Positions 405 to 3,410 of a stretch of DNA of 6,706 bases are shown here, in pieces; the stretch's first letter is position 1, and each line of letters opens with the position of its first letter. Under the pieces are notes generated by a model that saw nothing but the letters and a program-made list of their open reading frames with translations, had not been told where the DNA came from and made no database searches. This DNA comes from Candidatus Aenigmatarchaeota archaeon. GTDB taxonomy: Archaea; Aenigmatarchaeota; Aenigmatarchaeia; Aenigmatarchaeales; JACQIB01. Both the position numbers and the translations under genes were made by a program. Location: NCBI GenBank assembly GCA_046760225.1, contig JBHIDR010000035.1, forward strand, positions 1 to 6,706, in the 5' to 3' direction.

Positions 405-830
405 ATGGAGTATAAGTTTTTCGAGCACACAGCTGACACCATCTTTGAAGGATATGGCAAGAGCTATGAGGAGGCTTTCGCCTCGGCAGCACTTGCAATG
501 CAGGAGGTCATGACTGATACATCCAGGGTGGAGGCAAAACAAGAGGAGAAGATAGAAGCAGAAGCCAGGGACATGAAGGCGCTGCTGTACGACTTTCTTG
601 AGAAGTTCCTGATACTCAAGGATGCAAAGAACCTTGTTTTCTCAAAGTTTGAGGTCAAGAGGATAGATAAGACTGACAGGGGATACAGGCTCGAAGCAAA
701 GGCATGGGGAGAGGAATTCAACCCGGAGAAGCACGAGGACAAGAGCCATGTCAAGGCTGTTACATACCATGAAATGGAAATCGGTGAGAAGGAAGGAAAG
801 AAATATGTAAGGGTGCTGGTTGACATCTAG
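405..830 (+). CDS. Archease (RtcB activating cofactor)
   Basis: 141 aa with N-terminal YKFFEHTAD, central LLYDFLEKFL, AWGEEF and C-terminal VKAVTYHEM...VLVDI, all archease signatures. It lies close to rtcB. Confidence 0.95.
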   Translation: MEYKFFEHTADTIFEGYGKSYEEAFASAALAMQEVMTDTSRVEAKQEEKIEAEARDMKALLYDFLEKFLILKDAKNLVFSKFEVKRIDKTDRGYRLEAKAWGEEFNPEKHEDKSHVKAVTYHEMEIGEKEGKKYVRVLVDI

Positions 831-1329: not shown

Positions 1330-2837
1330 ATGCCTGAAATAAGTCTCAAAAAAATAGATGAGCTGCGCTGGGAGATACCCATAGGAACGATTCCAAATAT
1401 GCGCGTTCCTGTAAGGGTCTTTGCCAGTGAGCCCATGCTCGAGAAGATGAAGCGTGACAGGACGCTCACACAAGGAGCTGGCGTTGCAACACTGCCAGGG
1501 ATTTATAAGCATGCCATTGTTCTGCCGGATGGGCACGAGGGATATTCTGTAAATGATTTTTGCAGAACCTTAAATGGGTTCCCAATCGGCGGGGTGGCTG
1601 CACTTGATTTCAAGGAAGGCGGAATAAGCCCTGGCGGAATAGGATTGACTAAATAGTGTTAGCTTTTAGTCCCTAAAATGATATCAATTGTGGCGTGCGG
1701 CTTGTTACCACTAATCTCACGATTAAGGATGTAATGCCGAAAATAAAGGAGCTGTTGGAGGCGTTGTTCAGGAACATTCCCTCGGGCTTGGGCTCCAAGG
1801 GAAAAATAAAGGTATCAACTGATGTCCTGAACACTGTCCTGGAAAAAGGAGCTGCCTGGGCTGTTGAAGAAGGCTATGGATGGAAAAAGGACCTTGAGCA
1901 CCTTGAATCGAACGGCAGGATTGATGCTGATGCTTCGCTTGTGAGCAGCAGGGCAAAGGACAGGGGCAAGCCACAGCTCGGTAGCCTGGGTTCAGGTAAC
2001 CATTTCATTGAAGTGGAAAAGGTTGACAAGATATTCAGTCCTGAAGTTGCAAAGGCATTCGGCATCCATGATACTGATCAAATAGTTGTGCTTATACACA
2101 CAGGCTCAAGGGGGTTTGGGCACCAGGTATGCAGCGATTACCTGAGGGAAATGGAAAGAAAGTTTGCTGACATTATCGCAAAGCTGCCTGATCGTGAGCT
2201 TGTATATGCTCCTGCCGGGACACAGATGGCAAAGGACTATCTGCTTGCAATGGGATGCGCTGCTAATTTTGCCTGGACCAACAGGCAGATGATAGTGCAC
2301 TGGGCAAGGCAAAGCTTTGAAAGGATATTCAAGAAGAGTGCAGAGGACATGGAAATGAACATCATCTATGATGTTGCCCACAACATCTGCAAGATAGAGG
2401 AGCATGAAGTCAATGGAAAGAAAGCAAAGGTGTACATGCACAGGAAAGGGGGAACAAGGGCATTCCCTCCAGGACATCCTGAAATACCTTCTGAATACCG
2501 TTCAGTTGGCCAGCCTGTGTTTATTCCTGGAAGCATGGGAACAGCTTCCTATGTGCTTCATGGAGTAGACGAAGGGAAGGTTACGTTCTTCTCAACTGCA
2601 CATGGTGCAGGAAGGGAGATGAGCAGGCATGCTGCGCTCAGGCAGTGGAGAGGGGAAAGGGTCAAGAAAGAGCTTGAGGCAAGGAACATCTTTGTGCGCA
2701 GCGCAAGCTGGAAGGGGATTGCAGAAGAGGCTCCTGGTGCATACAAGGACATAGATGAGGTAGCAAGAGTGAGTGACGAGACAGGCATCGCAAAGCGCGT
2801 CTCAAGGCTTGTGCCTGTGGGTGTTGTGAAGGGATAA
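1330..2837 (+). CDS. rtcB: RNA-splicing ligase RtcB, intron-containing: join(1330..1543,1574..1645,1678..2837), 481 aa
   Basis: Exons of 214+72+1160 nt total 1446 nt, i.e. 481 aa plus stop. The spliced product has all RtcB motifs: LPDGHEGYGFPIGGV, SPGGIGYDINCGVRL, GSLGSGNHFIEV, IHTGSRGFGHQV, YDVAHN, HRKG, PGSMG, STAHGAGR and EEAPGAYKD. Archease is nearby. Confidence 0.93.
1544..1573 (+). other. rtcB intron 1: 30-nt BHB (archaeal tRNA-type) intron, in frame, no stop
   Basis: Central helix AGGG(1538-1541)/CCUU(1568-1571). Bulges AUA(1542-1544) and AAA(1572-1574). Inner 9-bp stem UUCUGUAAA(1545-1553)/UUUGCAGAA(1559-1567). Outer exon-exon pairing of 1522-1537 with 1575-1592. Removal restores GGA TAT GGG TTC (GYGF). 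Confidence 0.85.
1646..1677 (+). other. rtcB intron 2: 32-nt BHB-like intron, frameshifting, with in-frame TAG
   Basis: Central helix UAGG(1640-1643)/CCUA(1672-1675). Bulges AUU(1644-1646) and AAA(1676-1678). Inner 7-bp stem GACUAAA(1647-1653)/UUUAGUC(1665-1671). Removal restores GGA TAT GAT ATC AAT TGT GGC GTG (GYDINCGV) and joins the two ORFs in frame. Confidence 0.9.
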
Positions 2838-3410
2838 TCAGTTTGCAATGAACTCGAATATTCTTTCAAAAGAACGTGGCGTATGATCACACAGAGCATG
2901 ATAGAGCAAGGAGTCAAATTTCCTTGCATCATCCTCATTGAGGTAGTTTGTCTCGAACCAGAGCTGCGGTCTCATGTCAGTGGTCTTTCTCAGGGCCTCG
3001 CCGTTCGACTTTGCTGTAACCATGTATACCTCTATTCCCTGATTCTTTCCCTTGTAGGCGATTGCATTGCGGTCTGAGGCTATTACCTTTATCATCTTGA
3101 ACTTCTCCTTGTCCCCGTCCTCTATGGCCTTGGCTGTATCTTCAAAGTCAGAGGAAAAGCAGTAGGCCTTTTTAACAACGTACAGGTCTTCTCCGTCTTC
3201 CCTTTCAACTGCCTTGAGGTCCTTTTCCATTATTTCATTGAAGTATTCGGCAGCGCCTTCTGAACTCTGGGGTGCAACTGTACTTTTCTTGAACTCCTCT
3301 TCTGTTATTCCAAACTCCTTTAATGACTCATAAAAGGGCTTGTTGTCCACAGCATACGCAAAGACAGCTGCCCAAACCTTGGATAGATATATGCTCGGAT
3401 CTGGCATCAT
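2838..3410 (-). CDS. Hypothetical protein (190 aa, acidic)
   Basis: Long ORF with protein-like composition that fills the gap between rtcB and the next gene. GAGGAGA RBS on the minus strand at 3412-3418. No family recognised. Confidence 0.7.
   Translation of the reverse strand: MMPDPSIYLSKVWAAVFAYAVDNKPFYESLKEFGITEEEFKKSTVAPQSSEGAAEYFNEIMEKDLKAVEREDGEDLYVVKKAYCFSSDFEDTAKAIEDGDKEKFKMIKVIASDRNAIAYKGKNQGIEVYMVTAKSNGEALRKTTDMRPQLWFETNYLNEDDARKFDSLLYHALCDHTPRSFERIFEFIAN

Follow-up and report, generated by a model that had tools for sequence, protein, structure and literature searches.

How can the tRNA-splicing ligase RtcB be produced from a gene in which two of the most conserved motifs are each broken by a short insert? 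This question is raised by a stretch of 6,706 nucleotides (nt) from Candidatus Aenigmatarchaeota archaeon (hereafter, the window), which is the whole of contig C35 in a genome of 851 kb and 83 contigs that is rated 83% complete. When read unspliced, the plus-strand rtcB gene of the window falls into two open reading frames (ORFs) of 108 aa (1330-1656) and 380 aa (1695-2837). The initial annotation had claimed that excision of positions 1544-1573 and 1646-1677 would yield a 481-residue RtcB, and both its coordinates and its arithmetic proved to be right: segments 1330-1543, 1574-1645 and 1678-2837, once joined, form an uninterrupted frame of 481 codons with both RtcB motifs present and no further lesion. 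We conclude, with a probability of roughly 0.8, that this gene is interrupted by two mini-introns of the archaeal tRNA, or bulge-helix-bulge (BHB), type, which would be cut by EndA and sealed by RtcB in the mRNA. The parts of the gene are listed below.

1330..1543, plus strand: rtcB exon 1; stops after base 1 of the Tyr codon of the PDGH-x-G-Y motif and aligns with residues 3-70 of P. horikoshii RtcB
1544..1573, plus strand: intron 1; 30 nt, in frame and without a stop codon; a hairpin with a 9-bp inner helix
1574..1645, plus strand: rtcB exon 2; 72 nt, PF01139 profile positions 26-46
1646..1677, plus strand: intron 2; 32 nt, frameshifting, with a TAG stop that comes into frame; 7-bp inner helix
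1678..2837, plus strand: rtcB exon 3, stop codon included; PF01139 profile positions 48-426, E 1.3e-148

In a Pfam search, the three exons fall in register on the RtcB profile, and each insert splits a Tyr codon. Relative to the solved RtcB of P. horikoshii, intron 1 corresponds to a 10-residue gap in a conserved loop, directly after the Tyr aligned with residue 70. The end of exon 2 corresponds to residue 93 of the same protein, and intron 2 splits codon 94, which we take to lie just ahead of the metal ligands Asp95 and Cys98.

Geometry of the two inserts

The inserts were scored by the standard BHB rule, which asks for four exon bases paired with four intron bases, for a 3-nt bulge on each strand that is cut after its second base, and for an inner helix by which the intron is closed. 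For intron 1, the central helix is formed by exon bases 1538-1541 and intron bases 1568-1571 (4/4 pairs, one of them G-U), flanked by bulges at 1542-1544 and 1572-1574 and followed by a 9-bp inner helix (1545-1553/1559-1567). For intron 2, exon bases 1640-1643 pair with intron bases 1672-1675 (4/4 Watson-Crick pairs), the bulges lie at 1644-1646 and 1676-1678, and the inner helix has 7 bp (1647-1653/1665-1671).

The proposal that a cut after the second bulge base restores both protein motifs was borne out. When the strict BHB score was computed for all 289 cut pairs within 8 nt on either side, the motif-restoring cut was the unique top choice for each of the two introns, and only 2 or 3 cut pairs per intron restore the protein motif at all. 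Thus, RNA geometry and protein motif independently indicate the same bonds. The accompanying description of each insert as folding into a BHB holds as far as the 3-nt bulges and the 4-bp helix are concerned, which are present in both, and goes a little too far for intron 2, where the 3′ bulge has no stable outer helix behind it. At the free-energy minimum, the BHB of intron 2 is shown directly, and the central helix of intron 1 is displaced by one base. Intron 1 with its flanks, the only one of the two for which fold energy is an informative test, is more stable than shuffled sequences (z of -3.47, with 1 of 200 shuffles equally stable).

Independent DNA support, copy number and selection

The window is a short contig from a fragmented metagenome-assembled genome, and a fault of assembly or binning was therefore considered. 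Both inserts are present, without indels, in Logan contigs of four DNA runs, all from one study of hydrothermal vents, and no joint that skips either insert was found among them. One of these contigs, of 991 nt, matches 1330-1727 with zero differences. Two others, of 5,921 and 20,510 nt, cover the whole of rtcB with 11 substitutions and no gaps and represent a slightly different strain. Since the inserts recur in independent contigs, two of which differ from the window by these single-nucleotide polymorphisms (SNPs), we regard an artefact as the most improbable of all the explanations weighed here.

Two side observations were made on these contigs. Ten of the 11 strain differences (contigs X1 and X2) lie within 40 nt of exon 3, at 2408-2447, with three amino-acid changes, and the cluster may mark a variable loop or a short tract of recombination. 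In each of the four runs, summed contig depth is several-fold higher at 2503-2553, a rise that is due to short contigs from other organisms matching the conserved RtcB sequence there.

A profile search revealed no second PF01139 locus in the 83%-complete genome, so that the rtcB gene of the window is the only one found there, in support of the initial annotation. In comparison with the intron-less rtcB of a genome of the same genus (G001, 78% protein identity), pN (nonsynonymous differences) is 0.146 and pS (synonymous differences) is 0.807. Eight of the 11 strain SNPs are synonymous, and the other three cause conservative amino-acid changes. The low pN/pS and the mostly synonymous SNPs indicate that rtcB is under purifying selection.

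These data bear on the view that the gene is a decaying pseudogene, disabled by its inserts, with the ligase activity coming from a different gene or from a host. Host dependence is common among DPANN archaea, and another copy could be located outside the 83%-complete assembly; a candidate for another ligase might be seen in a weak match to PF09414 (RNA_ligase; 32 bits) at G000:C24:10669-11214, inside a 569-aa open frame on contig C24. The size of this frame would, however, suit an ATP-dependent DNA ligase. PF09511 had no match in the genome, but its control matched nowhere either, and this result is uninformative. Against decay, the 481 codons are otherwise undamaged, selection against amino-acid change is strong, both inserts lie exactly where BHB geometry restores the frame, and the same arrangement is found in dozens of genomes from many families. 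We consider a pseudogene very improbable.

Inserts in rtcB genes of related archaea

RtcB was searched for with Pfam in 61 relatives and then in 371 genomes of the class. It was found in 331 of the 371, and many copies were flagged with internal stops or split matches. We compared 58 rtcB loci, 30 of which were best matches taken automatically and 28 of which were selected because they had been flagged, with the intact G001 protein. With the window included, this whole-gene comparison revealed 21 short inserts in 18 genes (of the 30 unselected loci, only one had an insert), and all 21 are confined to two segments, PDGH-x-G-Y-G-F-P and G-I-G-Y/F-D-I-N-C-G. The motif-restoring cut was at the top of 289 in 16 of the 21, and uniquely so in 12.

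Frequency across the class was measured by means of two degenerate patterns that were tied to the codons on either side and admitted inserts of 15-45 nt; as the patterns cover only the two segments, they say nothing about clustering. Inserts were found at site 1 in 41 of 371 genomes and at site 2 in 13, with both sites occupied in 9, i.e., in 45 genomes in total, and a reversed control pattern had 0 matches in every genome. In a re-analysis of 37 of the 41 site-1 inserts (those of G213, G223, G227 and G310 were left out) and of all 13 site-2 inserts, the motif-restoring cut ranked first in 28/37 and 8/13, respectively, the cut being in each case the best-scoring of 1-9 motif-restoring options, which slightly biases the test in its own favor.

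The exact insertion points vary. Measured from where the His codon begins, the site-1 points lie at 3, 9, 10, 12 and 16 nt (15, 1, 9, 10 and 2 cases), and there are three points at site 2 (5, 4 and 4 cases), which makes eight over both sites. The points used in the window are common to eight other genomes at site 1 and to four others at site 2. Where inserts share a point (the window versus G023 and G006 at site 1, and versus G008 at site 2), the sequences of the inner and central helices differ, and pairing is kept, as the initial annotation had anticipated when it proposed to look for compensatory changes in relatives. Most 5′ bulges read AT|A or AT|T, and most 3′ bulges AA|N. Neither the same-genus genome G001 nor G002 has introns in rtcB, and 326 of the 371 genomes have no such inserts in these segments.

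Many of the homologous inserts contain stop codons or shift the frame, which requires their removal from RNA. This fact also bears on the idea that inserts are dealt with during translation, the ribosome either bypassing them or, in the case of intron 1, reading them as a 10-residue loop. Intron 1 is indeed in frame and free of stops, and intron 2, which has a hairpin and, a few codons past a GGA codon, a stop in frame, superficially resembles a bypass site. The comparison case for programmed translational bypass is T4 gene 60, where a take-off codon is paired with a landing codon. In the window, no codon matching the one ahead of either insert precedes the point at which the frame resumes; this includes the GGA take-off codon before the resumption point of intron 2, where, moreover, the Tyr codon is split. 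Reading through the insert could not serve as a general solution either, since its counterparts at the point of intron 1 in relatives measure 28, 31 or 33 nt or include stop codons, and solved RtcB structures mark no room for ten additional residues in the conserved loop that intron 1 interrupts. Either form of translational tolerance strikes us as very hard to sustain.

Several rtcB genes of the class depart from this pattern in other ways. In two genomes of the same family as the window (G003 and G004), an in-frame insert of ca. 1.5 kb directly precedes the D-I-N-C-G Cys codon (L041, G003:C25, 1467-2927, minus strand; L042, G004:C5, between 556 and 2072). The insert of G003 matches Intein_splicing (E 1.6e-15) and LAGLIDADG_3; an intein and the proposed RNA introns therefore target the same motif. 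The window inserts themselves cannot be inteins, being 30 and 32 nt long, with intron 2 out of frame. A site-2 insert of 165 nt, far longer than the rest, is present in L055 (G224:C80, 534-698), with a motif-restoring cut, 4/4 central pairs and an 8-bp inner helix. In L038 (G053:C11), there are two mini-inserts, and about 30 codons are absent between the WEIP and LPGI stretches, with a change of frame; the gap may stem from a deletion, from decay or from a third intervening element. The gene of L040 (G033:C35) is broken, with a frame change, between reference residues 141 and 177, and Pfam shows stops in both pieces.

Splicing machinery and tRNA introns in the genome

The splicing set named in the initial annotation, i.e., the cognate endonuclease EndA, archease and RtcB, is fully encoded in the genome. 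The gene for archease lies in the window itself.

405..830, plus strand: archease gene (RtcB activator); PF01951, E 7.2e-47, full profile length, about 500 nt upstream of rtcB

EndA is represented by two paralogs on contig C2 (G000:C2:22790-24355), with lengths of 163 and 202 aa, both of which have the N-terminal and the catalytic domain (PF02778 and PF01974). They flank one unrelated 189-aa ORF, and the shorter paralog, judged by eye, seems to be without the His found at the expected place in the longer. The presence of two small paralogs suggests that the enzyme may be heteromeric and of broad specificity, like the enzymes that published work connects with relaxed motifs and with the splicing of cbf5.

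Aragorn detected only 21 tRNA genes and predicted introns in 13 of them, several at non-canonical positions. So few tRNA genes with so many introns suggest that many tRNA genes are disrupted or were undetected. When tRNA introns of eight genes were scored by the BHB rule applied to rtcB, the best cut coincided with the aragorn boundaries in five. The organism clearly lives with many BHB-type introns.

The remainder of the window offers little that touches on rtcB. A small winged-helix-like ORF is located between archease and rtcB on the opposite strand, and a 190-aa ORF without a Pfam match (2838-3410, minus strand) abuts the rtcB stop codon. No Rfam family matched in the window.

Search for similar introns elsewhere in the genome

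A loose genome-wide scan for BHB motifs returned 48,147 candidates, approximately the number expected by chance. Candidates that would join ORFs did not stand out from random-position controls (3,166 versus 3,289 with one filter; 327 versus 254-313 with another). There were 485 compact candidates under strict rules, nine of which interrupt the frame between long open stretches, and among these nine only intron 2 of rtcB looked like part of one gene. The scan is blind to in-frame introns without stops, to relaxed motifs and to introns longer than 50 nt. A blastn-short search of the genome with both introns gave only chance matches of 14-18 nt; with no copies elsewhere, neither intron qualifies as a repeated mobile element in this genome.

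Points that weigh against two introns in rtcB

Several of our results count against the conclusion that the two inserts are BHB introns. The outer exon-exon helix at the 3′ bulge of intron 1 has only 2 bp, followed by a mismatch and then by a longer helix, and that of intron 2 has only 1 bp. With outer helices this weak, both motifs are relaxed and depart from the textbook hBHBh′ form. Relaxed BHB motifs are known, according to passages of two papers, for cbf5 (PMC2738675) and for non-canonical tRNA introns (PMC5829648). Cutting them would need an EndA of relaxed specificity, for which the two paralogs would be the candidates. The fold of intron 2 is no more stable than that of shuffled sequences (z of -0.67, 44 of 200 shuffles). 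Among the relatives, 9/37 site-1 and 5/13 site-2 inserts did not have the motif-restoring cut ranked first, and five relatives with an insert at the site-1 point of the window have only 2/4 central pairs under the strict rule.

Other points concern the genome and the data at hand. The genome-wide scan yielded no other convincing interrupted protein gene, although, given its low power, this is weak evidence that rtcB is alone, and the proposal does not account for a gathering of inserts in rtcB alone and in these two motifs. Completeness of 83% leaves room for a second, intact rtcB on unassembled DNA. Finally, among the sequencing runs found, no RNA run carried the locus, and excision, ligation and intron circles are predictions from the DNA.

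Proposed mechanism and its consequences

The structure of the DNA, the BHB geometry, its conservation and the set of enzymes are established; from them, the following course of events can be envisaged. The rtcB gene would be transcribed with both inserts, and EndA would cut after base 2 of each 3-nt bulge, breaking four bonds in all. RtcB that is already present, together with archease, would then seal the 2′,3′-cyclic-phosphate and 5′-OH ends, twice per message. From the sealed message, a 481-aa RtcB would be made in which the two active-site motifs of the N-terminal part are whole. An unspliced message would yield an N-terminal fragment only, and a message that retained intron 1 alone would encode 10 extra residues in an active-site loop. 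If the gene is spliced in this way, no new RtcB can be made without a supply of the protein passed on by the mother cell.

Does the cell gain anything from this arrangement? It can be proposed, in line with the loop inferred in the initial annotation, that the introns are adaptive and are kept to gate RtcB synthesis by splicing capacity, i.e., by EndA, RtcB and archease, as a positive feedback or a checkpoint. The need for pre-existing RtcB follows from the structure of the gene, and the inserts fall inside motifs, within codons 1-100, at places where a failure of splicing gives an inactive product; both segments hold inserts in nine genomes of the class, and archease and rtcB are neighbors. 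Such autoregulation nevertheless appears unlikely to us. Introns are absent from the same-genus genome G001 and such inserts from 326 of 371 genomes of the class, and the eight insertion points, the lengths and the sequences vary freely, whereas tighter constraint would be expected of a tuned regulator. An essential enzyme would presumably be poorly controlled by positive feedback alone, since a high demand for ligase would cut its synthesis. In addition, an intein, the classic selfish element, occupies the same motif in two relatives.

We therefore regard the introns as part of a large and evolutionarily fluid population of mini-introns that occupies the same two rtcB segments across the class. 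Most likely, they persist as near-neutral or selfish passengers made harmless by the resident splicing machinery, rather than as a purpose-built regulator; their patchy distribution, their varying points and sequences, the awkwardness of positive feedback and the selfish intein in the same motif all favor this view. Two bolder ideas are more doubtful than gating by splicing capacity. The introns might make RtcB synthesis autocatalytic, creating a self-sustaining state that is inherited through protein and acts as an all-or-none switch between growth and shutdown, or the clustering in rtcB might be due to excised introns that the splicing enzymes now and then reinsert into the message of the ligase itself. 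Were the switch real, the ligase would be made only in cells already holding active EndA, RtcB and archease.

If two BHB introns do interrupt rtcB as we propose, this would be a second host gene for such introns, with about 1 in 8 genomes of the class concerned, and mRNA splicing by EndA and RtcB would no longer be a peculiarity of a single gene. It would also mean that automated gene calling consistently misreads the rtcB of these genomes as a split or truncated gene. The locus would also be a natural case of an enzyme needed to mature its own message, with a bearing on the spread and persistence of introns and on the inheritance of an essential activity through protein. RNA introns and an intein in one active-site motif make up a compact system in which to ask why intervening elements gather at conserved sites.

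Comparison with known systems

In the literature searched in full text, with subscription journals outside the search, cbf5 was the only confirmed archaeal protein gene with such introns, and nothing was found on introns of rtcB; the initial annotation, which knew of no described rtcB of this structure, is borne out for that literature. That BHB introns of protein genes are confirmed for cbf5 only is stated in the conclusion of PMC2738675, and a passage of PMC5829648 cites cbf5 papers alone for BHB introns of pre-mRNA. The cbf5 gene encodes a pseudouridine synthase, and its pre-mRNA intron in Crenarchaeota is the subject of three papers (Watanabe 2002; Yoshinari 2006; Yokobori 2009, PMC2738675).

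The resemblance to cbf5 is considerable. There too, according to passages of PMC2738675, a short tRNA-type intron interrupts a protein gene, its BHB is often relaxed, the cut falls between bulge residues 2 and 3, the splicing endonuclease is hetero-oligomeric, and gain and loss are patchy among relatives. The introns of the window do not belong to the cbf5 family itself, the host gene being rtcB (PF01139). They also differ from it in that cbf5 introns occur in Desulfurococcales and Sulfolobales, and those of rtcB in DPANN-type archaea; in that one site is used in cbf5, whereas here there are two introns per gene and eight insertion points across relatives; and in that the host gene is the pathway's own ligase, whose product is needed for its own synthesis. 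Splicing of cbf5 has been confirmed by cDNA, whereas the rtcB introns are known from DNA.

With the BHB introns of archaeal tRNA and rRNA, which EndA cuts and RtcB, with archease, ligates, the rtcB introns share the 4-bp helix between 3-nt bulges, the inner hairpin and the size range. Here, however, the substrate would be an mRNA, with no tRNA body to aid recognition and with a weak outer helix.

Like the introns, the rtcB intein is an intervening element of this gene, and it occupies the same N-terminal motif of the metal site. In contrast to them, it leaves the protein rather than the RNA, is about 490 residues long and has its own homing endonuclease domain. The solved P. horikoshii RtcB is named the PH1602 "extein".

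A more distant parallel is the splicing of XBP1 and HAC1 messages by IRE1 and RtcB in eukaryotes, in which, as described in the abstracts of PMC3400036 and PMC4687415, an endonuclease cuts twin stem-loops of an mRNA, RtcB seals the exons and the frame changes. That system uses another nuclease and another RNA motif, it is a regulated stress switch, and its target is a transcription factor, whereas in the window the message to be sealed would be that of the ligase.

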